DNA of 64,000 nt from Bacillota bacterium (GCA_007122335.1 SKTZ01000029.1:5593-69592), one strand, 5' to 3'; shown: positions 14,546 through 62,415, counted from the first letter of the stretch. Numbers and translations are program-made. Notes: generated by a model from the letters alone, not told the origin.

Positions 14546-14547
14546 AT

Positions 14548-31572: not shown

Positions 31573-31590
31573 AGGGGGGACCAGACAAAT

Positions 31591-32715: not shown

Positions 32716-32718
32716 ACC

Positions 32719-33396: not shown

Positions 33397-33447
33397 AAGA
33401 AGTGCTAACCAGGCAATTAGTTCCAAAAAAATGAGGAGGTTTGATTC

Positions 33448-36318: not shown

Positions 36319-36324
36319 AGGGAA

Positions 36325-41024: not shown

Positions 41025-41061
41025 AGTAAGAGGACTGTTGTGGCTAACGGAGGTTTTACTT

Positions 41062-41813: not shown

Positions 41814-41825
41814 GAGGAGCAAGAA

Positions 41826-43126: not shown

Positions 43127-43128
43127 TT

Positions 43129-44993: not shown

Positions 44994-45028
44994 AAAACAC
45001 TATGAATTAACAGGAGGAGGCAACCGGG

Positions 45029-46525
45029 ATGGTACAGGGAGTAGAAACGCATTCGCATTTACCGGGATTGGTCGTATTAATTCCAATAATTTTTACTGCA
45101 TTGGTAGGGATTTTCCAGAAAAGGTCATTTTTGCTCCGCAACTGGCTTTTTATTAGCGGCGCGGCAATTACCTTTGCTGGAATGGCTTTGATGGGCTATT
45201 ATGTCCTGCAGGGAAGAATACTGGTTATCAACTATCTTGTGGCCATGTTTCCGTTTACCATTACATTCAGAGTGGATACCCTAAGTTTTCTTATTGGGGT
45301 TGTTGCTGCAGGAGTATGGCTATTGGCTTCAATATATTGCTTGCAGTACATGAAAGATGACCATGCTCCCAACCGTTATTTCCCGGTTCATATTTTTACC
45401 CTGGCTGGTTCGCTAGGGGTATTTCTTGCGGGGAACCTCTATACTTTTTTCCTCTTTTATGAGGTAATGGCTTTTTCCGGTTACTTATTTGTTATCCATG
45501 CTGAAACTCCAGAAGCTTTTAAAGCTGGATCCAGGTACCTGATGGTAACCATCCTGAGTGGTATCCTGGTTTTCACTGGGGTTATTATTACCTATCAGCT
45601 GGCAGGAACTCTTGACCTGGGTTCTTTAGGAATCATTCCCGAGGCCAATGTTGTCTCCCTGATCGCCTTTGTGGCTTTTATAATTGGTTTTGGTTTTAAG
45701 GCGGGTCTTTTTCCGCTGCATACCTGGTTGCCTGCTGCTCACCCGGTTGCGCCGTCTCCAGCGAGTGCTTTGCTTTCTGGGATTTTGATCAAAACTGGAG
45801 CTTACGGAATAATCCGGGTAACCTATAACGTTTACGGGATCGAGATGATGCGGGATACTGGCTGGCCCACTATTCTGCTGATTTTCGCTGCGATTACCAC
45901 TCTTTACGGATCCATGGCTGCTCTGGTTCAGGATAATCTTAAAAGACGTCTCGCTTATTCAAGTATCAGTCAGATCGGATATATACTTATGGGGGGAGCC
46001 CTTCTTACCGAGCGTGGCCTGGCTGGTGATGTTTTTCACATTGTCAGTCATGCGACAATCAAAAGCACCTTGTTTTTAACTGCAGGGGCAATTATTACCA
46101 AGACGGGGATTAAATATGTAAGCCAGATGGCAGGAGTGGGGCGAAAAATGCCCTATACCATGGGGGCTTTTACCCTTGCTGCACTGGCTATGATCGGGAT
46201 TCCACCTTTAAATGGTTTTGTTAGTAAATGGGCCCTGGCCCTGGGTGCTTTAGATGCTGGCCAGCCAGGCTATGCGGTTGTTCTTTTAATCAGTAGTATG
46301 TTGAACGCCCTGTACTATTTACCAATTGTAATTCTTGCTTATTTCCGCAAACCGGAAGAAGGGACAGTTCTTTATGGAGATATGTTGCGTTACGATGAAG
46401 CCAGGGCGAGTATGCTTGTGCCAATTTTAATTCTGGCTCTGAGTTTGGTCATATTCAATATCCTACCTGTTAACCTGCCACTGGTTCTGGCCGAATTCTC
46501 CGCACGGGCCCTTTTCCAGCACTAG
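45029..46525 (+). CDS. mnhD: Mrp subunit D / NuoM-like proton-conducting membrane subunit (copy 2)
   Basis: FGFKAGLFPLHTWLPAAHPVAPSPASA, RRLAYSSISQIGY and HATIKSTLFL. Confidence 0.85.
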   Translation: MVQGVETHSHLPGLVVLIPIIFTALVGIFQKRSFLLRNWLFISGAAITFAGMALMGYYVLQGRILVINYLVAMFPFTITFRVDTLSFLIGVVAAGVWLLASIYCLQYMKDDHAPNRYFPVHIFTLAGSLGVFLAGNLYTFFLFYEVMAFSGYLFVIHAETPEAFKAGSRYLMVTILSGILVFTGVIITYQLAGTLDLGSLGIIPEANVVSLIAFVAFIIGFGFKAGLFPLHTWLPAAHPVAPSPASALLSGILIKTGAYGIIRVTYNVYGIEMMRDTGWPTILLIFAAITTLYGSMAALVQDNLKRRLAYSSISQIGYILMGGALLTERGLAGDVFHIVSHATIKSTLFLTAGAIITKTGIKYVSQMAGVGRKMPYTMGAFTLAALAMIGIPPLNGFVSKWALALGALDAGQPGYAVVLLISSMLNALYYLPIVILAYFRKPEEGTVLYGDMLRYDEARASMLVPILILALSLVIFNILPVNLPLVLAEFSARALFQH

Positions 46526-46541
46526 GAAGGATGTAGATATA

Positions 46542-48956
46542 ATGGTTAATGCAATCGGGCCGAGCATGCAAAACGCGTTGCTTGTAACCGCGATATTTGC
46601 TCCCCTTCTGGCCGCTGGAGCCCTGTTTAAAGTAAGGGTTTTTAAAACGGCACACAAAATTGCTCTTGTGGCAATTGGGCTTGCTGTTGGGGCGTTAGTT
46701 GCTGTTGTTGGGGAGCCGATAGAATTTATCTGGGAAGGTTTCCTCGGGGTAAGATTTGTCCTTGCTCCTGATTACATGGGGATTTTCCTTGCCATTATGG
46801 CCCTTGTTTTATGGTTTCTTTATACTCTTTTTAGCCTTGATTTTATGCAGAGAAGCCATAATTCAATTCGTTTTCTTTTCTTTTCCCTGCTTTCCCTGAC
46901 TGGAACCCTTGGTGTTTTTCTTGCAGGGGATCTTTTTACAATGTTTGTCTTCTTTGAATTTATGGCCTTTGCCTCTTTTCCCCTGGTTATCCATGAGGAG
47001 ACTGAAGAGGCTCACCGGGCGGGCAAACAGTACCTTTATATTGGAGTGCTGGGAGGCCTGACTATTTTGCTGGGCCTTTTTCTGCTGTACCATCGCCTGG
47101 GAACTCTTGTATACAGTGAACTGGGAGGAGCACTGGCTGGTGGGTCCCCGGTGGATATAATAATTATCGCTGGTCTGCTGCTCGGGTTTGCCATAAAGGC
47201 GGGCCTGGTTCCAGTCCACTTCTGGGTACCCCAGGGTTATGTTGCCGCCCCGGCACCTGGTAGCGCAATCCTTTCTGCCGTTCTTAAAAAATGTGGAGTT
47301 TTTGGGATTATCCGTTTGCTCTTTTTAATGGCTCCGATGTTAACTTTCGGGCAGGTAATACTTGGTTTTGGTTTATTAACAATGGTTTTGGGATCGCTAC
47401 TGGCCTTTTTTGAGCATAACGGGAAAAGAATACTTGCTTACAGCAGTGTAAGCCAGGCGGGTTATATTATGGTAGGGTTCGGCGGAGGCGCGATAATGGC
47501 TGAAACTGGAGTAATGGGAGGTCTTGGTTCTTTTTTCCACGTTCTCAACCATGCTCTCTTCAAAGGAAGCCTATTTTTAGCTTTGGGTTATACTTTTCTG
47601 CGAACCCGGGAATTCAATATTTATCGCCTGGGTAACCTCTGGAAGAAGATGCCCTTTACAACCATTTTAGCAGTTGTTTCTGCAGCCGGGCTAATGGGAT
47701 TACCTCTTTTTAACGGTTATCCCAGCAAAACAATGATTCACCACGCCATTACTTTCGCCGAAAGTGAAACTCAAATGGCGATATACGGATATGCTGAAAC
47801 CCTTTTTAATATTGGTGCCGCAGGGACCACTGCTTATTGCATCAAGCTGATTTATAATGTTTTCTTCGCTCCCCGGGAGCCTGAGTTTACAGGGGAAAAA
47901 GAAAAACCCCTGGTTCAGGGGATATTTATGGTTTTAATTGTAGCCATGCTTTTTATCGGGCTGTTTCCAACTCTGACCATGGAAACCATTATTTTCCCCG
48001 CTGCAGGTGCTTTTTTCCTGGACCCTGATTTTGTTGATTATAAATTAGGTGGGTACAATTTTTTCAATGCTTATGATCTGCGGGGGGCTTTTAAAATTCT
48101 TTTAATTGGTCTGGGGTTAACCGCTATCAACCTTGTTTTGGTCAAAAAACGAATAGACCTTCCCCGCTGGTTATCAATTGAAAGGCTTGTTTTGAATCCT
48201 TTAATTAAGGCTTTAGGGGCAATTCTTGGTGCTTCATATTATTTTATTAATAATCGGCTAATGGGTTTTGGGACTGGTCTCGTAGAAGGCTATAAAAAAG
48301 GACTTCCCTTTATTAACCACCTGGATGGCTATGTTGATGAAATAGGAAAGAGAACAGATGATCTTTTTGCCGGATTTGTTTTCAAGACCTCGGGTAGCCA
48401 TGACCAGAGAAAGCTGATCAATCTGATTTTAGATTATGGAAAGGAAGAAAAAGAAGAAGCTGAGCTGCATGGGTTCTGGAATTGGTTAACGGGTGAAGGA
48501 ATTTTACAACCAGTTGATAAAGAGAATGTTGATTCCCCCGATTTTATTGGAAGTGTTGAAGATTTCAGCAAAAGAATTCAGGAAATGATGGAAAAAGAAG
48601 AGTTGACGGAAAAAGAGAAAAATCGCGTAGAAAGACTTTTTGCCCGGCTTATGGCTTTAGAAGAAAAGGGCATTTCCCCAAAAAGTATGGAGGAGAAAAG
48701 TTATCCTCATTTGCGGATTATCCAGCGAATGGAAGAGATATTCCAGTACCTTACGGGGAATATACAAACTGTTGACGGGTTGGAAAAAGACCAGGAAAAA
48801 GCCCGGGTAGACAAGAAAAAAATCGAAAAAAAGAAGGAAGCTCTGGATTCCGGCTGGGGCAAGTGGAGCGTGTTGAACCTTAATTTTGACATGATTATCC
48901 TTGCTGTTACTCTGGTAATTGCGGTTATATTGCTGGTATTTTTTGCCCAGATTTAA
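46542..48956 (+). CDS. NuoL/MrpA-like proton-conducting membrane subunit with unusual charged coiled-coil C-terminal extension ending in one TM helix
   Basis: The N-terminal 500 aa or so contain FAIKAGLVPVHFWVPQGYVAAPAPGSA, RILAYSSVSQAGY and HALFKGSLFL. The C-terminal 250 aa or so are E/K-rich (EKEEAELHGF...EKEELTEKEKNRVERLF...KDQEKARVDKKKIEKKKEA) and end in ILAVTLVIAVILLVFFAQI. Confidence 0.75.
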   Translation: MVNAIGPSMQNALLVTAIFAPLLAAGALFKVRVFKTAHKIALVAIGLAVGALVAVVGEPIEFIWEGFLGVRFVLAPDYMGIFLAIMALVLWFLYTLFSLDFMQRSHNSIRFLFFSLLSLTGTLGVFLAGDLFTMFVFFEFMAFASFPLVIHEETEEAHRAGKQYLYIGVLGGLTILLGLFLLYHRLGTLVYSELGGALAGGSPVDIIIIAGLLLGFAIKAGLVPVHFWVPQGYVAAPAPGSAILSAVLKKCGVFGIIRLLFLMAPMLTFGQVILGFGLLTMVLGSLLAFFEHNGKRILAYSSVSQAGYIMVGFGGGAIMAETGVMGGLGSFFHVLNHALFKGSLFLALGYTFLRTREFNIYRLGNLWKKMPFTTILAVVSAAGLMGLPLFNGYPSKTMIHHAITFAESETQMAIYGYAETLFNIGAAGTTAYCIKLIYNVFFAPREPEFTGEKEKPLVQGIFMVLIVAMLFIGLFPTLTMETIIFPAAGAFFLDPDFVDYKLGGYNFFNAYDLRGAFKILLIGLGLTAINLVLVKKRIDLPRWLSIERLVLNPLIKALGAILGASYYFINNRLMGFGTGLVEGYKKGLPFINHLDGYVDEIGKRTDDLFAGFVFKTSGSHDQRKLINLILDYGKEEKEEAELHGFWNWLTGEGILQPVDKENVDSPDFIGSVEDFSKRIQEMMEKEELTEKEKNRVERLFARLMALEEKGISPKSMEEKSYPHLRIIQRMEEIFQYLTGNIQTVDGLEKDQEKARVDKKKIEKKKEALDSGWGKWSVLNLNFDMIILAVTLVIAVILLVFFAQI

Positions 48957-49504: not shown

Positions 49505-49591
49505 TGGTGCCGAAGGTGGGATTCGAACCCACACGAAGGTAACTTCACACGACCCTGAATCGTGCGCGTCTGCCAATTCCGCCACTTCGGC
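49505..49591 (-). tRNA. tRNA-Leu (anticodon CAG), class II with long variable arm, CCA encoded
   Basis: The reverse complement is GCCGAAGTGGCGGAATTGGCAGACGCGCACGATTCAGGGTCGTGTGAAGTTACCTTCGTGTGGGTTCGAATCCCACCTTCGGCACCA. It has acceptor GCCGAAG/CTTCGGC, anticodon stem CACGA/TCGTG with loop TTCAGGG (CAG), T-arm GTGGG-TTCGAAT-CCCAC, and a 3' CCA. Confidence 0.9.
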
Positions 49592-49630: not shown

Positions 49631-49782
49631 GGAATATCTGGTATTTTTGGCAGGAATAATGTGCTTTATGACGAATTGAAAAAGGTGGGTGTTTAACAGG
49701 AAAGAAAATTATTAGGCAAGTGGGATGGATTGGTTTTGCGAGGATTGAAAAATATTTTTGGTGCGAGGAGGGCAGGTTCTAT

Positions 49783-50232
49783 ATGAGCAAGGATCTGGTC
49801 GCAGAAAAGTCAAACCTTATTAAGGTGTTACAGACGGAGCAAAAGAAGGAAGGTTTTATCTCTGATGCTGCAATAGAGAGAATAGCTGGAGAATTTAACC
49901 TTCCTGTTGTAGAGGTTGAAGGTGTTGTGAGTTTTTATACCCAGTTCAAAAGGGTTCCCCCGGGCAAATACCAGATTATGGTTTGTGATGGGACTGCATG
50001 TCATATTATCGGTTCAACCCTGATCTTGAACTGGCTTACTGACGAACTTGGCATAAAAGACGGGGAGACCGATGAAGAAGGTCTCTTTTCTTTGGAAAGC
50101 GTTGCCTGCCTGGGTTGTTGCAGTTTAGCCCCGGTAATCAGCATTAACGGCAAGGTCTATGGTAAGCTTGATCGCAAAAAACTATTAAAAATTGTAGCAG
50201 ACTTTCGGAAAAAGGAGGCAGCTGGATCATGA
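49783..50232 (+). CDS. NuoE/HydC-like [2Fe-2S] subunit (second copy; StnA-like)
   Basis: LIKVLQTEQKKEGFIS...MVCDGTACHIIG...SVACLGCCSLAP. ATG 49783 after GAGGAGGG. Confidence 0.8.
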   Translation: MSKDLVAEKSNLIKVLQTEQKKEGFISDAAIERIAGEFNLPVVEVEGVVSFYTQFKRVPPGKYQIMVCDGTACHIIGSTLILNWLTDELGIKDGETDEEGLFSLESVACLGCCSLAPVISINGKVYGKLDRKKLLKIVADFRKKEAAGS

Positions 50233-51950
50233 TAAAAAGAATTAAAGTGGGGATGGCCAGCTGTGGTATTGCTGCCGGAGCAGGTGAAGTGCTGGAATTA
50301 CTGCAGGAAATGGCCGGAGATAATAAAGTTGTTGAAGTTGGTTGTATCGGACACTGTTATGCTGAACCTCTTGTTGAAGTTGAAACAGATTCCGGGGACT
50401 ATATTTTTGAAAAAGTCCAACCCAAGGAAGAAGACCTGCAGAAGATTATTGACCTGGATGAATTTTCTCGCTTTCAACCCCATTCCCCGCGTGTTGATAA
50501 AGAAAGACAATTGATTACCTCTCTCGCCGGGAAAATTGTTCCCACCTCTCTTGAGGAATACAGGGCTAACAAAGGATACGAGGGCTTGAAAAAAGCTCTG
50601 GAAATGGAACCGGATGCAATTGTTGACGAAGTGAAAACTTCCAAGTTGCGTGGCCGTGGTGGGGGAGGTTTTCCCACGGGATTAAAATGGAGCTTCCTGG
50701 CAGCCAAGGACAGCGAGCAAAAAGTTTTAATTTGCAATGCTGACGAGGGAGATCCGGGGGCTTTCATGGATCGGACTTTAATGGAATCACTTCCCCATCA
50801 GGTTTTGGAAGGAATGTTGATCGGGGCGAAAGCAACTGGTGCCCGCCAATTATTTATTTATTGCCGGGCGGAATATCCCCTGGCAGTAAAAAATTTGAAT
50901 ATTGCGATTGAACAGATTGAAAAAGAAGGCCTTAATATAATCGATGGAGAGCCCGTTAAAATTATGGTTAAAGAAGGAGCGGGGGCATTTGTTTGCGGAG
51001 AAGAAACTGCCCTCATTCACTCCCTTGAAGGGAAGAGAGGGACTCCAAGGTATCGCCCCCCATATCCAACTGACTATGGTTTCCACGGCTATCCCTCGGC
51101 AATAAACAATGTTGAAAGTTTTGCGAATATCCCCCTGATTGTCCGGGATGGAGGGGAAAATTTTGCAGCTACGGGAACCGAGAATAGCACGGGAACAAAA
51201 CTCTTTGCTCTCGCCGGAGACCTGGAGTATTCTGGACTTGTTGAGGTTCCCATGGGAATTTCTATAGGGGAAGTTGTCTACGACATTGGAGGGGCTGAAC
51301 CGGGAAGTGTTAAGGCTGTCCAGATTGGAGGCCCCAGCGGTGGTTGCATTCCTGCGGAACACTTTGATACTCCCATTGACTACGACTCTCTCACTTCCCT
51401 GGGTGCAATTATGGGGTCAGGTGGCTTGATTGTAATTGGAAATAACCGTTGCATGGTTGAAACTGCTCGCTATTTCCTGGAATTTACAACCAGGGAAAGC
51501 TGCGGGAAGTGTACTTTCTGCCGGATCGGAACCAAGCGAATGCTGGAGACTCTGGAAAGAATAACCGGTGGGGAAGGTGGTCCCGAAGATGTAGAGCTCC
51601 TCGCTGATCTGGGTAAGAAAATTATTCAGGGATCCTTGTGTGGGCTCGGTCAAACCGCTCCCAACCCGGTGCTTTCTACCCTCAAATATTTCAATAATGA
51701 ATACCTGGCTCACGTCGAAGAAGGCCATTGTGCGGCCATGGAGTGCAAGGCCCTGGTTGATGTTTTTATCGATAGGGAAACCTGCATTGAATGCGGGCAG
51801 TGTATTAAGAATTGCCCCGTTGATTGTATAAGCGAGGATTACGTGATTGATAATGAAATTTGCACCCGCTGCAACAGCTGTATTGAGGTTTGTCCTGTAG
51901 ATGCCATTGCCCGGGTTGCGAAAGGAGGGGAAGTCAGTGTCGGAAATTAA
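50229..51950 (+). CDS. NuoF/HydB-like FMN/NAD(P)H-binding Fe-S subunit (second copy; StnB-like)
   Basis: GRGGGGFPTGLKWSF, CNADEGDPGAFMDR and ESCGKCTFCRIG, plus two C-terminal 4Fe-4S motifs. ATGA overlap with the upstream gene. Confidence 0.9.
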   Translation: MIKRIKVGMASCGIAAGAGEVLELLQEMAGDNKVVEVGCIGHCYAEPLVEVETDSGDYIFEKVQPKEEDLQKIIDLDEFSRFQPHSPRVDKERQLITSLAGKIVPTSLEEYRANKGYEGLKKALEMEPDAIVDEVKTSKLRGRGGGGFPTGLKWSFLAAKDSEQKVLICNADEGDPGAFMDRTLMESLPHQVLEGMLIGAKATGARQLFIYCRAEYPLAVKNLNIAIEQIEKEGLNIIDGEPVKIMVKEGAGAFVCGEETALIHSLEGKRGTPRYRPPYPTDYGFHGYPSAINNVESFANIPLIVRDGGENFAATGTENSTGTKLFALAGDLEYSGLVEVPMGISIGEVVYDIGGAEPGSVKAVQIGGPSGGCIPAEHFDTPIDYDSLTSLGAIMGSGGLIVIGNNRCMVETARYFLEFTTRESCGKCTFCRIGTKRMLETLERITGGEGGPEDVELLADLGKKIIQGSLCGLGQTAPNPVLSTLKYFNNEYLAHVEEGHCAAMECKALVDVFIDRETCIECGQCIKNCPVDCISEDYVIDNEICTRCNSCIEVCPVDAIARVAKGGEVSVGN

Positions 51951-53976
51951 ACTGACCATAGACGGAAAACAGATTACAGCCCCCAGAGGGAAGACCATAC
52001 TTGAAGTGGCCAAAGAAAATGGGATAGAAATCCCGACCATGTGTCACGATGATAGAATAAGCCAGACCACCTCCTGCTTTGTTTGTATTGTCCGGGAAGG
52101 GAAGAATGGAAACTGGATGCCCTCCTGCTCTGCAGAAGCCCAGGATGGGATGGAAGTTGATGCATCAAGTGATCTAGTTCGGGATATGCGGAAAACCGCC
52201 CTGGACCTGCTCCTTTCTGAGCATAGCGGAGATTGCGAGGCTCCCTGCACGATTTCCTGTCCCGCCCATGCCCGGGTTGAAGAATACGTGAGAGCAGGAC
52301 GGGACGGTGATTTGCGGAAAACACTGGAAATTGCCAAGGAGCGTATTCCCCTGCCCCTCTCAATTGGAAGGGTTTGTCCGCGGTTTTGTGAAAAGGACTG
52401 CCGGCGTAATGTGTTAGATAATGAAGGTGTTGCCATTAACGATTTCAAACGCATTTCGGCCGACCTTTATTATGATGAATATATGGAGGAACGGAAAGAA
52501 CTGACCGGACAAAAGGTTGCTATTATCGGTTCTGGCCCTGGCGGACTGGCAACTGCCTATTTCCTGAGGTTAGAAGGTGTGGCCTCTGATATTTACGAAA
52601 AATTACCTGAGGCCGGAGGTATGCTCCGTTACGGTATTCCAGAATACCGCTTGCCCAAGAAGGTTTTGGATAAAGAACTGGCTCATTTTGAAAAAATGGG
52701 TGGTATTAAAATATACTGTAATAACGAATTGGGCAAAGACATCCAGCTGGATAAACTCAAAAAAGAATATGATGCAGTTGTGGTAGCTGTTGGTTCCTGG
52801 AAGGCCAGCGGAATGAGAACTGAAGGGGAAGAGCTGGCCAGGGGAGGCATTGACTGGCTGGAAGAGCTGGCCCTTAATGGCTGGAAAGGTGAAGACCCTG
52901 GAGAAACCATAGTTGTAGGTGGTGGAAACACCGCCATGGACTGTGTACGCAGTGCGCTTCGCCTGACTGATGAACCTGTTCACTGTATGTACCGCCGGAC
53001 GGAAAAAGAAATGCCGGCCGAGCAAATTGAGATAGATGAAGCACGGGAGGAAGGTGCCCGGTTTAATTTCCTAACTCAGCCCATTAAACTTCGCAGAGAA
53101 AACGGGAAACTTGTTCTGGAATGCTTGCGGATGGAACTGGGTGAACCAGATGCTTCGGGAAGAAGGCGTCCCGTGCCCATTGAAGGCAGTGAATTTGAAG
53201 TTGCCGCAGATACTGTTATCGCTGCTATCGGACAGAAAACCCTTGCTCCAAAAGGGCTTCCAACTAACAAGTGGGGCGACGTAGATGTTGAAGAAGCTGA
53301 CTGCCGGGCAGAAGGTAATGTTTTTGCTGCAGGTGACTGTGTAAGTGGTCCAGCAACAGTTGTCGAAGCAGTTGCCGGTGGAAGAAGAACTGCCCTGGGA
53401 ATACTGGCCTACCTTAAAGGAGAAGAGTGCCAGCTTCCCCGTCAGATTAATGTCTCGCGCGGACACTGGCAGAGCATGTCCGAAGACGATCTGGTCTACC
53501 TTTTTGAACCCGATAAAAACAAAAGAGTCCCTCTGCGTTTGATACCCCTGGAAGAGAGAACTTCTACCTTTAAAGAAGTTAGTTATACCTTTACCGAAGA
53601 GGAAATTTTGGAAGAAGGAAAACGCTGTATTGAGTGTAGCTGTACTGCCAAAGGAGATTGTAAGCTTAAAGACTTCTCTGAAACCTATGGAGCCCATCCG
53701 GAAACATTTGGTGGAGAGAAAGGAAATAATACCTACAATTCCCGCCATCCCCACATAATAATGGATAACGGAAAATGTGTAAAATGTGGGATTTGTGTAA
53801 AAGTCTGCAGCGAGGTCGTTAACGAATATCTCCTGGGCTTTAAAAACCGGGGCTTTAAAACCAAGGTTGAAACTGCATTTGATACAACCCTTCCTGAATT
53901 CTGCACCGATTGCGGTGAATGTATTGAAGCCTGCCCGGTGGGAGCCCTGGATTGGAAAAAGAAAAAGGACGAATAA
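51937..53976 (+). CDS. GltD/NfnB-like FAD/NAD(P)H oxidoreductase with N-terminal 2Fe-2S/4Fe-4S (NuoG-like) and C-terminal ferredoxin domains (StnC-like)
   Basis: The N-terminal [33 protein letters not shown] is plant-type ferredoxin-like. The core has [43 protein letters not shown] and [16 protein letters not shown] (glutamate synthase small-chain family). The C-terminus has CxxCxxCxxxC motifs. GTG 51937 after AGGAGGGG. Confidence 0.8.
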
Positions 53977-54014
53977 AAAAAATAACCGCCCGGGAAAACA
54001 AAGGAGGAATTTGC

Positions 54015-54863
54015 ATGTCAAAACTTATTGATGGAAAGCAGATTGCTAAAGAAATCAGGGTAGAATTAAAAAAAGAAGTAGATGCCTTAAAGGAAAAAAC
54101 AGGAAAAGTTCCTGGCCTGGCAGTGGTTCTGGTTGGGGAAGATCCTGCATCAGCAACTTACGTTCGGATGAAGGGAAAAGCCTGCGAAGAAGCAGGATTT
54201 TTGTCCCGCACCCACAGGCTGTCTGAAAACACCACGCAAAAAGAATTGCTGGATTTAGTTAAACAACTCAACGATGATGACGAGATCCATGGAATTCTGG
54301 TTCAATTGCCTCTGCCGGATGGTCTTGACGAACAGGAAGTTCTTTATACAATTGACCCGGAAAAAGACGTGGATGGTTTTCATCCCTTCAATGTTGGCCG
54401 CTTGATGACGGGAGATCCCAGTTTTGTGCCCTGCACTCCTCGTGGTGTAATTGAACTCCTCGACCGGTCGGGAGTTGAAATAAAGGGTAAGAGAGCTGTT
54501 GTAATCGGAAGGAGCAACATTGTTGGGAAACCGGTTGCCCTTTTACTGCTACAGAAGCATGCAACGGTAACCATCTGTCATTCTCGGACCCAGGACCTTC
54601 CCGGAGTAGTGCGGGAGGCAGATATTGTTGTTGCCGCGGTGGGAAGACCAGAAATGGTAAAAGGGGATTGGATTAAAGAAGGTGCAATAGTTATTGATGT
54701 AGGTGTCAACAGGGTTGGCGAGAAAAAACTGGTTGGAGACGTTGCATTTGATGAAGCAAAAGAAGTTGCCAGCCTGATAACTCCTGTCCCCGGTGGGGTT
54801 GGCCCAATGACAATCGCCATGTTATTACAGAACACCCTGGAATCTTTCAAAAACCATGGATAA
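54015..54863 (+). CDS. folD: Bifunctional 5,10-methylene-tetrahydrofolate dehydrogenase / methenyl-THF cyclohydrolase
   Basis: [12 protein letters not shown]...[21 protein letters not shown]...GILVQLPLP...GFHP.N.G...CTP.G...GRSNIVGKP...[14 protein letters not shown]. Confidence 0.95.
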
Positions 54864-56103
54864 AACAGTCCTTACCGTTAGCGAACTCACCAGCTACCTG
54901 CAGGGTGTTTTGCGACGGGAAGAACTGTTAAGTGACCTCTGGGTGGCTGGTGAAATATCTAATTTTCACCAGCACCATTCGGGCCACTGCTACTTTACCC
55001 TCAAGGACAAGGAATCCAGGCTGCGGGCCGTTTTTTTCAAAAGCCACGCTGAAAAGATCAAGTTTAAAATGGAAAATGGACTGGATGTAATGGCCCGCGG
55101 TTATATTGATATTTACAAACAACGCGGAGAATATCAGCTGTATGTTCAGGAAATGGAGCCCGCCGGAATTGGGGCCCTGCACCTGGCTTTTGAACAGCTT
55201 AAAAAGAAATTGGAGGGAGAAGGGCTTTTTGCGGAAGAGCATAAAAAGCCCCTTCCTCCTTTTCCGCAAAAAGTAGGAGTGGTTAGTTCAGCTTCAGGGG
55301 CCGCGATAAAGGATATCCTTGCTGTTTTCCAGAGGCGTTCTGCAGGTACCTCGTTGCTTCTCGCTCCTGCCCGGGTCCAGGGGGAAGGCGCAGGAGAAGA
55401 GATTGCTGATGCTTTGGATAAACTTTCCCGGACCGATGTCGACGTGATAATTGTAACCAGGGGAGGCGGCTCATTGGAAGAACTCTGGGCTTTTAACGAG
55501 GAAGTTGTTGCTCGGGCCATTTTTTCCTGCCAAATCCCCGTTATCTCTGCTGTGGGACACGAGAGGGATTTTACCATTGCTGACTTTGTTGCAGACAGCA
55601 GGGCTCCAACCCCATCTGCAGCAGCGGAAATGGTTGTTCCCGACCACCGTCAGCTCAAAAAAGATATCCTGGAATACAAGCGGAGACTGGAAAAAGGACT
55701 CATCTCTCTTCTGGATAAAAGGAAGCAGGAACTGGAGAGATTGATGCAAAAAAGGATTTTCGTGCACCCTAAAGAAGAATTAATTGAAAGGCGCCGTCAG
55801 CTGCTTGATGAACTGGAAAACAAGATGGTGACCAAGGTCAAGCATGAACAGCAGATGGAAAGGGAAAGATTGCAAACCCGGGTTGCGCGGCTGGAAGGTT
55901 TAAGCCCGCTAAAAATTCTCGGCCTGGGATACAGCATTTGTACAGACCTTTCCGGGGAAAAAGTTTATAAAGATTTCCGACAGTTAGAGACCGATGAACA
56001 AATCAGGATAATTCTTTCCCGGGGAGAAGCAGAAGCCCGGGTAATTTCCACTCATGATAAGGCAAAAAAGGAGGATGGAAATGGGGGCCAGGCAAAAGGA
56101 TAA
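54856..56103 (+). CDS. xseA: Exodeoxyribonuclease VII large subunit
   Basis: [14 protein letters not shown]....[34 protein letters not shown] and [26 protein letters not shown]. Confidence 0.95.
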
Positions 56104-56395
56104 GTTGAGTTTTGAGGAGGCACTCCAGAAACTGGAGCAAATAGTTGAGAAACTGGAAAGCGGCGATTTAAAGCTGGATGAATCCCTTGAATTGTTTGAA
56201 GAAGGTGTTCGTCTTTCCCGGCTCTGCCAGAAAAAACTGGAAGAGGCCCAGGGCAAAATAGAAAAACTGGTCACCGAGAAAGATGGTGAGATCGAAACAG
56301 AACCTTTTGCTTCCCCGGAAAAAGATGAAGAAGATCAAAACGGAACTGGAAAGGATTCAAAAAATAGTAGAAACTTATTTGCCCAGGATAACTGA
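56081..56395 (+). CDS. xseB: Exodeoxyribonuclease VII small subunit (with acidic C-terminal tail)
   Basis: LSFEEALQKLEQIVEKLESGDLKLDESLELFEEGVRLSRLCQKKLEEAQGKIE. ATG 56081 lies 6 nt after GGAGG. The 3' 70 nt overlap the predicted ispA start. Confidence 0.85.
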   Translation: MGARQKDKLSFEEALQKLEQIVEKLESGDLKLDESLELFEEGVRLSRLCQKKLEEAQGKIEKLVTEKDGEIETEPFASPEKDEEDQNGTGKDSKNSRNLFAQDN

Positions 56396-57209
56396 AGAAA
56401 GGGCGATTCCCGAGAAATTTTCTGAAGCAATAGGCTATGCTCTATCGGGAAAAGGAAAACGGATCCGGCCCTTTCTTTTCCTTCAGGCATTTGGGATCTA
56501 TTCTTCTCATGAAGAAAAAGCGGTGCCTTTTGCCTGTGGAATTGAAGCAATTCATACTTATTCTCTGGTGCACGATGACCTTCCAGTTATGGATGATGAC
56601 GATTTCCGCAGGGGCAGGCTTACTACTCACCGGGTTTATGGCGAAGCCAATGCCTTGCTGGTTGGAGACGCGCTGCTTTCCCTTGCTTTTGAACTGATGA
56701 ATTCAAACGCCATTGATTTTCCCCCCGAAACCGTCCAGATGGCCATAGACAGAGTTTTAAAAGCTTCAGGCCCAGAAGGGATGGTCGGGGGCCAGTACCT
56801 TGATTTAAAAGGCGAAGGTAGAAAGCTTAACTTCAAACAATTGGAGGAGATCCACCGGAAAAAGACAGGTGCTTTAATCACAGCTTCGGTGGTTAGCGGA
56901 GGAATTTTAGGTGGTGCTCCTGAAGAGGAATTAAAAGCCCTGGAAGATTATGGGCAGGAACTGGGTTTATTATTTCAGATTACTGACGATTTACTGGATG
57001 TAGTTGGAGACCCTGATAAAACTGGAAAAGCCGGGCAAAAAGATGCAGCTTTAGGTAAATCAACCTATCCTTCGCTTCTCGGCATTGATGGAGCAAAGAA
57101 GAAAGCAGAGGAAAAACGCCTGAGAGCGCAAAAAGCTGCTGTTAAACTGGGAAAAAAAGGGAGGCTTTTCATTGAACTGGCTGATTTTGTTTTTTCCCGG
57201 GATAGGTGA
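56325..57209 (+). CDS. ispA: Farnesyl/geranylgeranyl diphosphate synthase (polyprenyl synthetase)
   Basis: GGKRIRP-like GKGKRIRPFL, FARM LVHDDLPVMDDDDFRRG and SARM FQITDDLLD. Start is 56325 (294 aa) or 56283. Confidence 0.9.
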   Translation: MKKIKTELERIQKIVETYLPRITEERAIPEKFSEAIGYALSGKGKRIRPFLFLQAFGIYSSHEEKAVPFACGIEAIHTYSLVHDDLPVMDDDDFRRGRLTTHRVYGEANALLVGDALLSLAFELMNSNAIDFPPETVQMAIDRVLKASGPEGMVGGQYLDLKGEGRKLNFKQLEEIHRKKTGALITASVVSGGILGGAPEEELKALEDYGQELGLLFQITDDLLDVVGDPDKTGKAGQKDAALGKSTYPSLLGIDGAKKKAEEKRLRAQKAAVKLGKKGRLFIELADFVFSRDR

Positions 57210-57212
57210 TAA

Positions 57213-57241
57213 TTGCTAGTAATAAGTGGTTATGTTATAAT
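57213..57241 (+). promoter_or_regulatory. Sigma-A promoter immediately upstream of OLE RNA
   Basis: TTGCTA, 17-nt spacer, TATAAT. The -10 ends 6 nt before the first nucleotide of the long-range closing helix. Confidence 0.55.
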
Positions 57242-57246
57242 TAATT

Positions 57247-57825
57247 GCGCATCGGCGGTGCAGTATCCTAGTCAGCTTTGTACTCTTGAAGGCGGGCCTA
57301 AAAATCCGTCAAAGGGCACATCGATGAAGTTCCTGGTTGTGGCTACTGACGCCCAGTCGGGGGTCATAGCTGGGAGTTAAGGATTTCGGGGCGATCCACA
57401 ATGGCATGTGGGCGTGGACCCTGATTCCGCGGAGGCCCGGATACAAGTCGGGAGCTAGTGTCCGGGGAACCTGCAGAAACCGCAAGGTAGCTGCAGTGTA
57501 GCCTGCTTTGAGTGGTAAGGGGAGAGGAGGGTATTAAGTCCTGCTTCCCAGGGGCCCTAGGAAGTAGTTCCTTTACCTCTGAAACCCTTACTGCAAAAGA
57601 AGCTAGGGAGTAATTAAGGCTGTCAAGGAAAACTTCTAGGCTGTCCCACTGTGGGGATAGACCGGGGATTGAAGTGTGGTCTGAGTGGTAATCCAGCCCT
57701 GCATATGGTGACATTGCAGAGTGATTTAAAGGGAAACCGCCAAAAGGGCAACCTTTTGGAGATCACTGGGAAAGCCTGCTGGACCTAAGCCGCAGCATTT
57801 ATCCGGTCTATTACCGCCGATGCGC
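57247..57825 (+). ncRNA. ole: OLE (ornate, large, extremophilic) RNA
   Basis: A gene-free segment of about 580 nt lies in the ispA-[OLE]-oapA-dxs context described for OLE RNA. A perfect 12-bp terminal helix joins GCGCATCGGCGG (57247-58) and CCGCCGATGCGC (57814-25). There is an 8-bp hairpin with a GNRA loop, CCAAAAGG-GCAA-CCTTTTGG (57740-59), and multiple further G/C-rich helices. No credible ORF is present. Confidence 0.8.
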
Positions 57826-57838
57826 CTGGAATTATTTT

Positions 57839-58408
57839 TTGGGGGGAAAAATATTGAACAAGAATCTCCAGACGGGAATTACAATGGGGGTATCAACTTT
57901 TTTTATTGCCATCCTCGTGGTGGCTTTATCCCGTTTGGCGGTAGCCAACCTGACCGCTTTTCTGGCAACAGTTGTTTTTCTCCTGATTATAACCATTGGT
58001 GTTCTGTTTGATATGATTGGGGTCGCGGCAGCCGCGGCCGATGTTGCTCCATTTAATGCCCGGGCGGCCCGGAAAGATTTTGGAGCCAGGACAGGCCTGC
58101 AACTGGTTCAAAACGCAGATAGAGTAGCAACCTTTTGCAGCGATATTGTTGGTGATATTTGCGGAATTGTAAGTGGTGCGCTGGGTGCAATGATCGTAGT
58201 TCGCCTGGCCTTCGCAGTTGATTTTAGTGAAGCTGTTCTAAACATAACAATTGTTGCCCTGGCAGCTGCTTTAACAGTTGGCGGGAAAGGTTTTTGTAAG
58301 GGGATTGGGATAAACAGGGCCAACGAAATTATTGGTTTTGTGGGTAATTTAATTGCACTTGTCCAGGGCTTTAACCCCGGAAAAAGAAAAGGAGGGCGCA
58401 GTAAATGA
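57839..58408 (+). CDS. oapA: OLE-associated protein A (small polytopic membrane protein)
   Basis: Four hydrophobic helices (FFIAILVVAL, AFLATVVFLLIITIGVLFDMIGVAAAAA, ICGIVSGALGAMIVV, ITIVALAAALTVGG). Its position immediately 3' of OLE and 5' of dxs is as in described ole loci. Start uncertain (TTG 57839, TTG 57854 or ATG 57884). Confidence 0.7.
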   Translation: MGGKILNKNLQTGITMGVSTFFIAILVVALSRLAVANLTAFLATVVFLLIITIGVLFDMIGVAAAAADVAPFNARAARKDFGARTGLQLVQNADRVATFCSDIVGDICGIVSGALGAMIVVRLAFAVDFSEAVLNITIVALAAALTVGGKGFCKGIGINRANEIIGFVGNLIALVQGFNPGKRKGGRSK

Positions 58409-60357
58409 TCCAGCTGGATGATATAAAAGGGCCTGAAATATTGCGGGAATGCGGCCCCGATGATCTGAAAAACATTTCTGATCAAATCCGCGAACGAATT
58501 ATTGATGTTGTATCCAAAAATGGAGGACATCTGGCTTCCAATCTGGGGGTTGTTGAATTGACTGTGGCCCTTCATTCAATTTTCTCGAGCCCTCGGGATA
58601 AAATTGTCTGGGATGTGGGGCATCAGTGCTATGCCCATAAATTGGTGACAGGCAGACAAAAAGAATTTGAAACCCTTCGTAAGTACAGGGGAATGAGTGG
58701 TTTCCCCAAAAGAAATGAAAGCCACCACGATATTGTAGAAACAGGGCACAGCAGTACTTCTCTTTCTGCAGCAATGGGCTTAGCAATGGCCCGGGAACAA
58801 AAAGGCGAAAACCACGAAATAATTGCAGTGATAGGAGACGGGGCTCTATCCGGAGGGATGGCTCTGGAAGCTCTTAATCACATTGGACACCTGAATAAAA
58901 AAATAATAGTTGTTTTAAACGATAATGAAATGTCCATTTCCAAAAACGTGGGAGCTCTGGCCAATTACCTGTCAAGAATCCGCACTGAACCGGTTTATCA
59001 AAAACTGAGAAGTGATGCAGAATTTTTAATGAAGAGGATTCCCGCTATTGGCGGACGGATGGCATTTGCCGCAGATCGGATCAAAGATAGCTTAAAGTAC
59101 CTTGTTCTTCCCGGTGTTTTTTTTGAGGAACTTGGATTTACCTACCTCGGCCCTGTTTCGGGGCATGATATTTCCGCCCTTCGCCAGTATTTCCAGCGTA
59201 GCAAGAGACTGGATGGCCCTCTTTTGATCCATGCCATTACGGAAAAAGGAAAGGGTTATCACCCGGCAGAAAAGAGCCCTTCCCGTTTCCATGGAACAGG
59301 ACCTTTTATCCTAGAAAATGGAGAAGGAAAGGTTCGTTCCAGCGGAAAAAGCTTTACCAGTTGTTTCAGCGATATAATTTGTGAAATGGCGGAAAAAGAT
59401 GAAAAGATAGTCGCTATCACTGCTGCGATGCCCGATGGAACTGGACTTGATAAATTTTCCCAAAAATTTCCCGATCGCTTTTTTGATGTTGGTATTGCTG
59501 AACAACACGGGGTTACCCTTGCAGCTGGAATGGCCCGTGGTGGCTTGAAACCTGTAGTTGCAATATACTCAACTTTTTTACAGCGTGCCTATGATCAAAT
59601 TATCCACGATGTATGCCTGCCCAATCTCCCGGTAATTTTTGCCGTTGATCGGGCCGGCTTGGTCGGCGAGGATGGAGAAACCCACCATGGCGTTTTTGAC
59701 CTTTCTTTTCTTCGCCATATACCCAATATGAATGTTCTGGCTCCCCGAGATCAGGTGGAACTGGAAAAGATGTTCACTTGGGCCCAGAGCTGTGAAGGAC
59801 CGGTGGCAATTCGCTATCCCAGAGGAAGTGTTCCCCAACCTCCCTTTAAGAGTGATCAACCCATCAACAGGGGGAAAGGAGAAATGCTCCGCAGGGGCAA
59901 GGATATCCTGCTTTTAGGTAGTGGGAGCATGGCCTGGGATGGGTACAAGGTTGCAGAAATACTGGAGAGCAAGGGATATTCAGTAGGTGTTGCTGACTTG
60001 AGGTTTATTAAACCCCTCGATGAAAAAAATATCTCCAGGTGGATAGAAAATGTTTCAATTGTTGTTACCTTGGAAGAAAATTATGTTGCGGGGGGAATGG
60101 GTTCAGCTATTCTTGAGTTTATGGCCAGGGAAAAGATTGAAAAACCTGTTTTAAATATTGGTCTTCCCGATCGGTTCATTACCCATGGAAATATTGGTGA
60201 ATTATTGCGGGAAAATGGACTTGATATTGATAATATGGTGGATAGAATTGAGGATTTTTGGATTTCCTGCTCCAAAAACCAGAAAAGGGATTCAGATTAT
60301 GGAGAAAAGATTGGACCTTTTGCTCGTAGAACTAGGGCTTTTTTCTTCAAGAAATAA
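58405..60357 (+). CDS. dxs: 1-deoxy-D-xylulose-5-phosphate synthase
   Basis: GGHLASNLGVVELTVALH, WDVGHQCYAHK, GDGALSGGMALEALN, IAEQHGVT and DGETHHG. ATGA overlap with oapA. Confidence 0.95.
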   Translation: MIQLDDIKGPEILRECGPDDLKNISDQIRERIIDVVSKNGGHLASNLGVVELTVALHSIFSSPRDKIVWDVGHQCYAHKLVTGRQKEFETLRKYRGMSGFPKRNESHHDIVETGHSSTSLSAAMGLAMAREQKGENHEIIAVIGDGALSGGMALEALNHIGHLNKKIIVVLNDNEMSISKNVGALANYLSRIRTEPVYQKLRSDAEFLMKRIPAIGGRMAFAADRIKDSLKYLVLPGVFFEELGFTYLGPVSGHDISALRQYFQRSKRLDGPLLIHAITEKGKGYHPAEKSPSRFHGTGPFILENGEGKVRSSGKSFTSCFSDIICEMAEKDEKIVAITAAMPDGTGLDKFSQKFPDRFFDVGIAEQHGVTLAAGMARGGLKPVVAIYSTFLQRAYDQIIHDVCLPNLPVIFAVDRAGLVGEDGETHHGVFDLSFLRHIPNMNVLAPRDQVELEKMFTWAQSCEGPVAIRYPRGSVPQPPFKSDQPINRGKGEMLRRGKDILLLGSGSMAWDGYKVAEILESKGYSVGVADLRFIKPLDEKNISRWIENVSIVVTLEENYVAGGMGSAILEFMAREKIEKPVLNIGLPDRFITHGNIGELLRENGLDIDNMVDRIEDFWISCSKNQKRDSDYGEKIGPFARRTRAFFFKK

Positions 60358-61081
60358 GGCGCAAACTGCAATCCGTAAAGGAGAAGTAACGGTAGAAGGT
60401 GAATTAATTAAAACGCCTTCAACAAAGTTTAAACCGGATGCTCGGATAAATGTAGCCCCTCAGGATCCTTACCCCGGTCGAGGGGGAATTAAGCTTGCCC
60501 TTGCTCTGGAACAGTTGAATTTTGACCCCAATGATATGATTGTTCTTGATGGGGGAGCGTCTACCGGGGGTTTTACCTCCTGTCTTTTACAGCGGGGAGC
60601 ACGCAAGGTATATGCAGTAGATGTTGGGAAAAACCAGCTGGACTCCCAGCTAAGAGTGGATCCCAGAGTCATTGTTGTAGAAAACTATAACCTCCGGTAT
60701 TTTTCTCCGGATTTAGTTAAAGAAAAATTGGACTTAATTGTCCTGGATCTATCCTTTATTTCGGCCACCAAGGTTATTCCCGTTCTTGAAAAAGCTTTAA
60801 AAGATGGCGGTTTTTTCCTGACTCTGGTCAAACCCCAGTTTGAGGTAGGACCGGGAAAAATTGGGAAAAAAGGACTGGTCCGCAACGAAACAGACCAGTT
60901 AAATGCAGTAACGAAAGTGGTTGATTCCAAAAAGGCAAATAAGTTAGGTTTTGTTGGGCTGGTGCCTGCTTCTCCAAAAGGAGTCAGTGGAAATCAGGAA
61001 TTTTTCCTCCTGTCGCAAAAAGGTGGAGAAAGAATTTTTTCAAACCAGGACTGGCTTGATTGCAGGGCAAGAATTAAATAG
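60299..61081 (+). CDS. tlyA: TlyA-family rRNA (cytidine-2'-O)-methyltransferase
   Basis: The S4-like N-terminal region is RLDLLLVELGLFSSRNKAQTAIRKGEVTVEG. The FtsJ-like core contains VLDGGASTGGFTSCLLQRGA..VYAVDVG and DLSFIS. Overlaps the dxs 3' end by 59 nt. Confidence 0.9.
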   Translation: MEKRLDLLLVELGLFSSRNKAQTAIRKGEVTVEGELIKTPSTKFKPDARINVAPQDPYPGRGGIKLALALEQLNFDPNDMIVLDGGASTGGFTSCLLQRGARKVYAVDVGKNQLDSQLRVDPRVIVVENYNLRYFSPDLVKEKLDLIVLDLSFISATKVIPVLEKALKDGGFFLTLVKPQFEVGPGKIGKKGLVRNETDQLNAVTKVVDSKKANKLGFVGLVPASPKGVSGNQEFFLLSQKGGERIFSNQDWLDCRARIK

Positions 61082-61092
61082 AGGTGTTAGCC

Positions 61093-61953
61093 TTGAAAAT
61101 TGGATTGATTGTAAATGAAGAGAAAAAAAAGGCCCTGCAGGTTGCGGAGGCTTTAATCGAAAAAATGAAGGGCAGGGATTTGCCGATTTATATTTCCCAG
61201 GAAGATGCCCCGGGAATGCAGGATAAGGGAACACCAATGTCCCGAAGACAGCTGCGCAAAGAGGCAGAACTTTTGCTCATTCTGGGAGGAGATGGGACAT
61301 TTCTGCATACCGCAAGGTTTTTTGCAGGCTCCAATATTCCCATCCTTGGTTTTAATCTGGGGCGGTTGGGTTTTTTAACAGAAATGGAAGCTGAAGATTT
61401 AGATTTAGTCCTGGATAATATCCTGGAAAAAAAATACCGGGTTGAAGAAAGAGCAATGGTCGAAGGATGGGTTTGCCGCAGGGGTCTTGAAATTGCTCGT
61501 GTTTTGGGTTTAAATGATATCGTCATCAGTAAGGGGGCCTTTGCCCGGATAATTGAACTGGACCTTTACCTGCAAAAGATTTACATCAGTACCTTTCCTG
61601 GAGATGGGTTAATTGTTTCAACCACAACTGGCTCAACTGCTTATTCCCTGAGTGCAGGAGGACCAATTGTTCACCCCATGGTTGAAGCCTTTATTGTTAC
61701 TCCGATTTGCCCCCATTCACTACATGCTCGACCTCTGGTAGTTCGCAAAGAAGAGCAAATTGAGATTAAAGTAAAGAGAGCGGATCGTCGGGTTATGTTA
61801 ACAGTCGACGGGCAGGAGGGACTTCGTCTGGTAAAAGATGATGTTGTCAAAATAGCAGCAGCGGAAGAGAAAACTCTCCTGGTTCGTTTTTCGGAAAAAG
61901 ATTTTTATCAGATATTACAAAAACGCTTAAATTATAAAGGGGATAGGGGGTAA
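61093..61953 (+). CDS. nadK: NAD kinase
   Basis: ILGGDGTFLH, GFNLGRLGFL and STTTGSTAYSLSAGGPIVHP. TTG 61093 lies 6 nt after GAGGTG (the track start GTG 61084 is also possible). Confidence 0.9.
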   Translation: MKIGLIVNEEKKKALQVAEALIEKMKGRDLPIYISQEDAPGMQDKGTPMSRRQLRKEAELLLILGGDGTFLHTARFFAGSNIPILGFNLGRLGFLTEMEAEDLDLVLDNILEKKYRVEERAMVEGWVCRRGLEIARVLGLNDIVISKGAFARIIELDLYLQKIYISTFPGDGLIVSTTTGSTAYSLSAGGPIVHPMVEAFIVTPICPHSLHARPLVVRKEEQIEIKVKRADRRVMLTVDGQEGLRLVKDDVVKIAAAEEKTLLVRFSEKDFYQILQKRLNYKGDRG

Positions 61954-61956: not shown

Positions 61957-62415
61957 ATGAAAGGAAAAAGGCATCTTAAAATAATTAATATTGTTAAAAA
62001 TGAGCGGATCAAAACCCAGGAAGAACTGGCCAGGGTTCTGCAGGAGGAAGGGATTGAAGTTACTCAGGCAACTGTGTCCAGGGACATCAAAGATCTTGGT
62101 TTGATTAAGGTTCCAGTGGAAGATGGAAGCTATAAATATGCCATGCCGCCTGAGGCAGATAAGTACAAAATGGCCCGCTGGATAGAGAAAATGTTCAAGA
62201 ATTTTGTCTTGAGCGTAGATTTGACAGGGAACCTGATTGTTGTAAAAACCCTATCCGGTACTGCCGGAGGGCTTGCTTCTGCAATTGATAACCTGGAATG
62301 GAAAGAAGTCATGGGTTGTGTGGCGGGAGATGATTGCATTTTTGTGGCTCTTGAAGAGAACTGTAATAAAGGTGAAGTTTTGCATCGCCTGCGAGAACTG
62401 GTGGGAATTGAATAG
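61957..62415 (+). CDS. argR: Arginine repressor
   Basis: R...I..I......I.TQEELARVLQEEGIEVTQATVSRDIKDLGL.KV and GT.AGDD..FV. Confidence 0.9.
   Translation: MKGKRHLKIINIVKNERIKTQEELARVLQEEGIEVTQATVSRDIKDLGLIKVPVEDGSYKYAMPPEADKYKMARWIEKMFKNFVLSVDLTGNLIVVKTLSGTAGGLASAIDNLEWKEVMGCVAGDDCIFVALEENCNKGEVLHRLRELVGIE

Follow-up and report, generated by a model that had tools for sequence, protein, structure and literature searches.

We have analysed 64,000 nucleotides (nt) of Bacillota bacterium DNA (GCA_007122335.1, SKTZ01000029.1:5593-69592; hereafter the window), in which a long intergenic region on the plus strand, centred on positions 57247-57825, is followed by an open reading frame (ORF) at 57854-58408. 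The Rfam model for OLE (ornate, large, extremophilic) RNA, RF01071, matches 57239-57833 (+) with 495.7 bits against a gathering score of 50 (E = 2e-142), and the match covers model positions 1-616 of 616 without truncation. Inside this interval lies a structured core of 579 nt, 57247-57825, bounded by a terminal helix. A scan of the whole window with Rfam at gathering thresholds gave two matches, OLE and one tRNA. The first-pass annotation, made from the sequence alone, had proposed an OLE RNA of roughly 580 nt and had named a covariance-model search as the check on it; this search gave a significant, full-length match and the proposal is borne out. Of the three conditions that it had listed as refuting the proposal, each checked in part, none speaks against it. 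We read 57247-57825 (+) as a full-length OLE RNA and 57854-58408 as the gene for its membrane partner, OapA, with a probability of about 0.94.

The segment 57247-57825 folds with a minimum free energy of -257 kcal/mol, compared with -206.7 ± 7.3 kcal/mol for shuffled sequences (z = -6.9), with none of 100 shuffles as good. The minimum-energy fold contains the terminal helix and the first two hairpins, designated P1, P2 and P3 here, together with the 3' domain.

Terminal helix, promoter and OapA

Comparative evidence was drawn from a collection of OLE loci obtained by searching one genome per species (596 gigabases) for the invariant 18-mer AAGGGCACATCGATGAAG, which yielded at least 120 loci, 88 of them with both the 5' and 3' OLE anchor motifs and enough flanking sequence; the loci collected include none from Halalkalibacterium halodurans. 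A MAFFT alignment of 89 OLE RNAs was used for conservation and covariation, 87 of which lie outside the window's own lineage, and the structure imposed on it consists of the pairs of the Rfam alignment moved to window coordinates, plus P1. Five matches to the 18-mer (L024, L044, L048, L069 and L081), in sequences labelled Acidobacteriota, Alistipes, Streptomyces and Acidaminococcus, were set aside as most simply due to chance, as the two other OLE anchor motifs are absent. Two further loci with unexpected labels look like real OLE loci: L101 (Deltaproteobacteria) has both anchors and an OapA homolog downstream, while L079 (Fibrobacter) has the 5' anchor before the contig end cuts the locus. 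These two contigs are possibly mis-binned.

The sequences GCGCATCGGCGGT at 57247-57259 and ACCGCCGATGCGC at 57813-57825 are exactly reverse-complementary, and the two strands of the terminal helix, GCGCAUCGGCGGU on the 5' side and ACCGCCGAUGCGC on the 3' side, form 13 Watson-Crick pairs. The first-pass annotation had described a perfect terminal helix of 12 bp; the helix is present and perfect, and its length is 13 bp. A helix in the same register occurs in the 88 anchored loci with a length of 3-14 bp (median 9), and reaches at least 8 bp in 69% of the loci, compared with 18% when 5' and 3' flanks from different loci are mixed. On the alignment of 89 RNAs, 12 of the 13 pairs of the window helix vary on both sides, with a covariation score of 0.513, a value reached by none of 500 shuffles (0.233 ± 0.013) and exceeding the 0.12-0.21 obtained when the partner strand is slid by 1-3 columns. 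Pairing is maintained in 72-100% of sequences for the inner eight pairs and in 37-70% for the outer five, and the window's terminal stem is, from these comparisons, the family stem with a GC-rich, lineage-specific extension. Since the numbering of the later stems fits, we infer that the helix corresponds to the published stem P1. In the RF01071 consensus both model ends are unpaired and the terminal helix is unannotated; the window adds a clear example, with family-wide covariation, of a terminal helix left out by the Rfam consensus.

A sigma-70-type promoter-like site lies directly upstream (57213-57241, +), with the -35 element TTGCTA at 57213-57218, a 17-nt spacer and an extended -10 element, TG-n-TATAAT, at 57233-57241, in which TATAAT occupies 57236-57241. 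The site agrees with the consensus at 10 of 12 positions in addition to the TG, and five bases separate TATAAT from the helix; the promoter described in the first-pass annotation is therefore found. This arrangement is widespread in the family, as 72 of 85 OLE loci have a -10-like hexamer whose end lies 10-30 nt ahead of the GGTGCAGTAT anchor, compared with 5 of 85 control segments taken 130 nt further upstream, and a -10 accompanied by a -35 occurs in 49 and none of 85, respectively. Transcription of ole is predicted to start at approximately 57247-57249, within the first bases of P1. In Halalkalibacterium halodurans, ole is reported to have its own promoter within a larger operon, with processing of the transcript to approximately 630 nt (PMC9723947).

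At the 3' side, a scan of the plus strand from 56200 to 58600 detected no intrinsic-terminator-like site, and none lies between the RNA and oapA or dxs. The combination of P1 and the U-run at 57834-57840 was considered as a terminator or conserved 3'-end signal and rejected, as 21 of 85 loci have a T-rich stretch in the 20 nt that follow P1, compared with 29 of 85 controls. Because no terminator-like site precedes oapA and the U-run is not conserved, co-transcription with oapA and dxs followed by processing is the likely route to the mature RNA.

The ORF begins 28 nt past the end of P1 (57825) and encodes a membrane protein of 184 amino acids (57854-58408, +). The most likely start is the TTG at 57854, located 7 nt after GGGGGG (57841-57846), with the ATG at 57884 a possible alternative; a 184-residue product is also called in the public assembly GCA_003557885.1. 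The protein is identified as OapA from three lines of evidence: the position of its homologs beside OLE in other genomes, the DxxxD motif and a comparison of folds. Of the 76 other OLE loci with sufficient 3' sequence, 73 have a homolog of the window protein as the next same-strand ORF (E = 1e-26 to 1e-40), and all 73 homologs contain the motif DV[IV]GD. The window protein carries DIVGD at residues 97-101, of which D97, G100 and D101 do not vary among 55 aligned homologs, and DxxxD has been described as distinctive of OapA (PMC11332333). The AlphaFold model (predicted local distance difference test, pLDDT, 87.3) contains long helices at residues 3-31, 35-61, 88-121 and 126-154, and hydrophobic stretches extend over residues 5-66 and 97-145, which together give an approximate count of four transmembrane helices. 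The best structural matches of the model are CorB (7M1U) and the membrane domain of CorC (7CFG). The first-pass annotation had taken the downstream protein as OapA, and its adjacency, motif and CNNM-like fold agree with this and with the published description of OapA (PMC11332333). OapA has been described as binding OLE RNA at a 2:1 stoichiometry and placing the RNA at the membrane (PMC12265935).

Separately, in the close relative PWGV01000093.1 (L121) the public oapA call at 3001-3759 is 252 amino acids long (P0001), its frame reaching back by approximately 200 nt into the 3' portion of the OLE RNA. Automatic annotation of this closely related genome has thus extended the oapA frame into an unannotated OLE RNA.

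Internal structure and conservation

From the 5' end, the first hairpin (57291-57310) pairs GGCGGG with UCCGUC around the loop CCUAAAAA and is taken as P2 from its order; the pairs are those of Rfam, and 98.7% of alignment cells are paired. It is followed by the invariant single-stranded element AAAGGGCACAUCGAUGAAG (57311-57329), which is upper-case, that is, highly conserved, in the Rfam consensus and is matched by the window; because the loci were collected with its last 18 bases, the identity of these bases across the alignment is by construction. A 20-bp hairpin with the loop GCCCA (57330-57376), the inferred P3/P3.1, is paired in 96.7% of cells with double changes at 15 of 20 pairs, and a membrane-spanning role has been proposed for the P3/P3.1 helix (PMC12265935). 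The next element, a three-tier hairpin with the loop AUGGCA (57381-57428), has inner tiers that are 98% paired and lies in the region in which the OapC kink-turn and the bS21 site have been reported in other species (PMC9723947; PMC12286853).

The central part of the RNA begins with a short variable hairpin at 57436-57466, which spans 34 nt between anchors compared with a median of 53 and has 12 Rfam pairs of low posterior probability. A second hairpin (57471-57496) is closed by CUGCAG and CUGCAG, with 22 nt between anchors against a median of 28; the pairing of the two CTGCAG copies proposed in the first-pass annotation corresponds to 57471-57476 with 57491-57496. The large multi-tier arm at 57505-57603, which includes the pair U57507-A57601, is of median length (71 nt). 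At 57625-57655, the small hairpins AAG-GAAAA-CUU and CCCA-CUG-UGGG, both composed of Rfam pairs, flank the conserved CUAGGCUGU, and in the first of them A57625-U57635 replaces the usual G-C.

The 3' domain (57656-57812) is enclosed by an 11-bp helix, 57656-57666 with 57802-57812; its enclosing helices are paired in 96-99.6% of cells and show many double changes. The stems of this junction have been named P12.2, P13, P14 and P14.1 (PMC7936274). P13 (57699-57719) consists of CUGCA, the one-base bulge U57704, AUG, the loop GUGA at 57708-57711 and the 3' strand CAUUGCAG (CAU followed by UGCAG), with the bulge at the Rfam consensus position. OapB binding is reported to need a GNRA loop and a single-nucleotide bulge (PMC7936274), and P13 is expected to be an intact OapB docking site; in L121 the P13 loop is GCAA, also a GNRA sequence. 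P14 (57720-57767; AGUGAUU with GAUCACU) bears P14.1, in which GCCAAAAGG and CCUUUUGGA enclose GCAA at 57739-57760, and includes the conserved UAAAGGGAAACC; P14.1 has been described with a GNRA-loop cap (PMC7936274). Two elements listed in the first-pass annotation fall here and are recovered, CCAAAAGG-GCAA-CCTTTTGG at 57740-57759 and the AGTGAT/ATCACT pairing at 57720-57725 with 57762-57767.

The window has standard pairs at 140 of the 151 pairs of the model. Over the 89 RNAs, the Rfam structure with P1 is paired in 81.5% of cells and double changes are observed at 132 of 164 pairs, giving a whole-structure covariation score of 0.421, compared with 0.185 for shuffles and 0.11-0.14 for slid partners. 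Among columns conserved in the 87 other OLE RNAs, the window matches 182 of 184 at the level of at least 97% and 224 of 229 at the level of at least 90%. Four of the five mismatches at the latter level constitute two compensatory pair changes. The pair 57507/57601 is U-A only in the window and L121 and C-G in all 87 others, and the pair 57625/57635 is A-U in the window and G-C in nearly all others. These changes at invariant or nearly invariant pairs are the one small new piece of comparative information. The suggestion of the first-pass annotation that this is a divergent representative is overstated, given the 182 of 184 highly conserved columns retained and a 99.8% identical copy in GenBank.

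The distance between the P1 strands is 553 nt, the sixth shortest of 89 (median 580). The compactness originates from the two short variable hairpins, 57436-57466 and 57471-57496, other segments being of median length. With its two variable hairpins retained, a large arm of median length and intact OapB features in P13, the window RNA is a compact member of the full-length OLE type.

Gene neighbourhood, host and host range

The first-pass annotation had placed the RNA in the order folD-xseA-xseB-ispA-ole-oapA-dxs-tlyA-nadK-argR-recN, and family matches bear this out. Upstream, Pfam and NCBIfam matches identify folD (53952-54863), xseA (54856-56103) and xseB (56054-56395), and the immediate neighbour is ispA, encoding farnesyl diphosphate synthase (56283-57209, +; NF045485, 328 bits, and PF00348). 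Downstream, dxs (58405-60357, +; TIGR00204, 851 bits) overlaps the oapA stop by 4 nt (58405-58408) and is followed by tlyA (60158-61081), nadK (61084-61953) and argR (61957-62415), again from Pfam and NCBIfam, and by recN from approximately 62418, which is cut by the window end such that only a RecN-like N-terminus with SMC_N and AAA_23 domains is seen. The same gene set has been reported to cluster with ole (PMC12265935). The region had also been called the longest non-coding stretch of the window, which is plausible, as the interval from the ispA stop (57209) to the oapA start (57854) measures 644 nt. Apparent larger gaps at 9472-10576, 13807-14547 and 19404-20083 were rejected as artefacts of crude ORF picking, each containing a real-looking ORF; the lone Rfam match in the third is below threshold and attributable to chance.

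The sequence is already public in a soda-lake metagenome-assembled genome, GCA_003557885.1 (contig PWNI01000311.1), in which Dxs is identical to that of the window and the OLE RNA is 99.8% identical (494.4 bits). The nearest labelled relative is L121, 'Halobacteroidaceae bacterium T1Sed10_148', whose OLE RNA shares 96.9% identity with that of the window in the P1-bounded core and 97% across the whole aligned length, and whose OapA is 93% identical. Other sampled OLE RNAs are approximately 73% identical to the window or less over their full length. The Halobacteroidaceae belong to the Halanaerobiales, within the Bacillota. Members of the Halanaerobiales have an outer membrane. Judged from these relatives, the window probably comes from a haloalkaliphilic anaerobe within the Halanaerobiales rather than from a Bacillus. 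Such a host fits the gene content of the window, which includes genes for an Mrp antiporter, a betaine transporter and an NAD-linked anaerobic formate dehydrogenase. An anaerobic or extremophilic Bacillota host is thus indicated by indirect evidence, the 97% identical OLE RNA labelled Halobacteroidaceae and the gene content.

The multi-subunit operon for the Mrp-type Na+/H+ antiporter extends over 41038-48956 (+) and the OpuA-type glycine betaine ABC transporter over 30889-34359 (+). The catalytic subunit of formate dehydrogenase (38092-40779, +) is preceded by NuoE- and NuoF-like genes (35827-38076) and contains an in-frame TGA at 39148-39150, in the context HCARL*HSATV, with molybdopterin domains on both sides; by its position this is the usual selenocysteine site of FdhA. 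A second in-frame TGA, at 524-526, occurs in a Bcp/PrxQ-type peroxiredoxin gene (380-844, +) at the usual position of the peroxidatic cysteine (YFYPKDNTGG*TKEAISFRD), and a stable hairpin (z = -2.4) lies approximately 10 nt after it, so that 380-844 resembles a gene for a peroxiredoxin containing selenocysteine, accompanied by the element for its insertion. Use of selenocysteine by the organism is probable. Directly upstream of folD, 49720-53976 (+) encodes a second NuoE-/NuoF-like pair and then a 691-residue protein with 2Fe-2S, 4Fe-4S and pyridine-nucleotide-disulphide oxidoreductase domains, which may form an oxidoreductase module, electron-bifurcating or NADH-linked, that is connected with one-carbon metabolism. 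The sole tRNA gene of the window, for tRNA-Leu (anticodon CAG; 49505-49591, minus strand), is situated between the Mrp operon and a NuoE-like gene. Four plus-strand ORFs, 6158-7522, 19580-20155, 21091-21645 and 34605-35573 (454, 191, 184 and 322 amino acids, respectively), have no Pfam match at E <= 1e-5.

Outside the window's lineage, many of the best-scoring OapA relatives among the matches listed carry Atribacterota or Caldatribacteriota labels. OapA homologs labelled Candidatus Caldatribacteriota/Atribacterota (P0047, P0031) are 44-49% identical to the window OapA, and homologs with these labels (L123-L127) are preceded by a gap of approximately 870-1000 nt. A full-length OLE RNA is present in both Atribacterota-labelled loci that were scanned, at 3218-3806 in L124 and 774-1363 in L126 (488 and 477 bits). 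The setting in L123-L125 is mscL-ole-oapA-peptidase C69, with no dxs downstream; in the short contigs L126 and L127 only oapA is seen, plus the peptidase in L126. The mscL-ole-oapA setting is complete in three assemblies and partial in a fourth, one of them on the 180-kb contig JAXGYG010000005.1. Fernando and Breaker (2024) mentioned 24 hits outside the Bacillota but left them out of account as potential cases of transfer or assembly error (PMC11332333), and our literature search found no paper linking OLE RNA with Atribacter. The labels, together with the outer membrane of the Halanaerobiales, raise the tentative and rather doubtful suggestion that the OLE-OapA module works in cells other than classical single-membrane Gram-positives. 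If this were so, revision would be needed both of the recent proposal that OLE domain 2 contacts the Gram-positive cell wall and of the view that OLE is confined to the Bacillota. This question bears on the OLE class and not on the present locus.

Function, alternative readings and comparison with known systems

The steps by which the RNA might act are drawn from work on H. halodurans and from cryo-electron microscopy of other OLE RNAs (PMC12265935, PMC12286853). By analogy, ole would be expressed from its own promoter as well as by transcription running through from the folD-ispA genes, and the RNA would be trimmed to a stable species of approximately 580-600 nt with its ends protected by P1. 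The RNA would then dimerise and be tethered to the cell membrane by OapA dimers, OapA being a putative four-helix relative of the membrane domain of the CNNM/CorB Mg2+ transporters which would operate without the cytoplasmic CBS/CorC domains. OapB would be recruited at the GNRA loop and bulge of P13 (P13/P12.2), OapC and bS21 near the kink-turn region, and the particle may aid tolerance of short-chain alcohols, cold, excess Mg2+ and poor carbon sources. An abundant, processed, membrane-bound ribonucleoprotein of approximately 600 nt, with stress phenotypes on deletion, has been described in H. halodurans only (PMC9723947, PMC12265935). What the window shows are the sequence-level prerequisites, and expression, processing, binding and phenotype are extrapolated from that organism and from other OLE RNAs.

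Several observations weigh against reading the locus as OLE RNA with its OapA partner or against details of that reading. The alignment was not structure-guided and variable arms are poorly aligned by MAFFT, such that low-scoring helices are found there, helices 7 and 14 having only 41-44% of cells paired. The stem names P1-P3 are tentative. The window OapA matches no Pfam or NCBIfam model at default thresholds and none in Pfam at E = 10, and a search of PDB sequences gave nothing useful; its likely relation to the CNNM domain is suggested by the fold of the model. The genes for the other partners were sought among the small ORFs of the 64-kb window: ten such ORFs searched against PDB sequences, which are expected to contain the published OapB crystal structure (PMC7936274), gave no OapB (ybzG) match, the only entries matched being a small heat-shock protein, Bcp, thioredoxin-like and Nudix proteins, and inspection by eye of these ten and five further small ORFs of the window revealed no L7Ae/YbxF-like protein that would correspond to OapC (ybxF).

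The best-surviving alternative, which we nevertheless regard as very unlikely, is that the region is a long structured 5' leader acting only in cis to control oapA and dxs, with no separate stable RNA. Such a leader would agree with the absence of an intrinsic terminator from the RNA to oapA, with the short interval of 28 nt between P1 and the oapA start, and with the overlap of the oapA stop and the dxs start, from which RNA, oapA and dxs are probably co-transcribed. However, the same arrangement in H. halodurans gives rise to an abundant processed RNA of approximately 630 nt acting in trans as a ribonucleoprotein (PMC9723947; PMC12265935), and the Atribacterota-labelled loci retain ole-oapA without dxs, which ties the RNA to oapA and not to dxs regulation. 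In addition, the proportion of invariant nucleotides, approximately 25% across 580 nt, is far above the needs of known leaders.

Less probable again is that the locus is an OLE gene in decay that no longer functions, a view to which the shortness of the two variable hairpins (34 and 22 nt against medians of 53 and 28) and the failure to find oapB and oapC among the small ORFs of the window would lend themselves. Decay is opposed by the 182 of 184 highly conserved positions kept, the two exceptions compensating each other, and by the comparison with the 97% identical relative, in which 8 of 12 substitutions at paired positions retain the pair state and none of 18 differences removes a helix. 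The oapA gene is intact with its invariant residues, the promoter is intact, and short versions of the variable hairpins are known natural variation (PMC11332333). Finally, chance resemblance to OLE or a base-composition artefact is excluded, in view of E = 2e-142 over the full model, the synteny with oapA and the covariation across the family.

The reading as full-length OLE RNA with OapA makes the locus a typical, ordinary copy of a described RNA family, already known and with nothing new in kind. The practical result is annotation, ole at 57247-57825 and oapA at 57854-58408, and knowledge of the class is unchanged.

Compared with the full-length OLE RNAs of H. halodurans (Bacillus) and Clostridium acetobutylicum, the window RNA is alike in its full model match, its invariant nucleotides and helices, a P13 with a GUGA loop and one-base bulge, its own promoter within a larger operon, oapA directly downstream and the neighbourhood of ispA, dxs, xseAB, folD, tlyA, nadK, argR and recN. 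It differs in being compact, with 553 nt against a median of 580, in a P1 of 13 bp against a median of 9, and in the compensatory changes at 57507/57601, a pair invariant elsewhere, and 57625/57635, which is nearly so. The window protein likewise resembles the OapA family in length (approximately 180-200 amino acids), helical membrane topology, DxxxD motif and a gene directly 3' of ole, whereas its identity to most OapA proteins among the matches listed is only 36-47%. The CNNM Mg2+ transporters MpfA and CorB possess CBS and CorC domains, in contrast to the window OapA, which is without both and falls below the Pfam CNNM model.

The OLE variants described by Fernando and Breaker have P7-P9 shortened or missing and the OapB site missing (PMC11332333). 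The hairpins that follow the GGAG motif are shortened in the window RNA, which points toward variant 1 (TANB77-type); however, variant 1 often lacks the P13 OapB site (PMC11332333), whereas the window RNA has this site and both hairpins. Variant 2 (RF39-type) is without P7 and P8 altogether (PMC11332333), in contrast to the window RNA, in which the P7-P9 region is present. GOLLD and ROOL are likewise large, highly structured non-coding RNAs whose biochemistry is unknown and which form RNA-only multimers (PMC12286853), but they are unrelated to OLE in sequence, structure and genomic setting.

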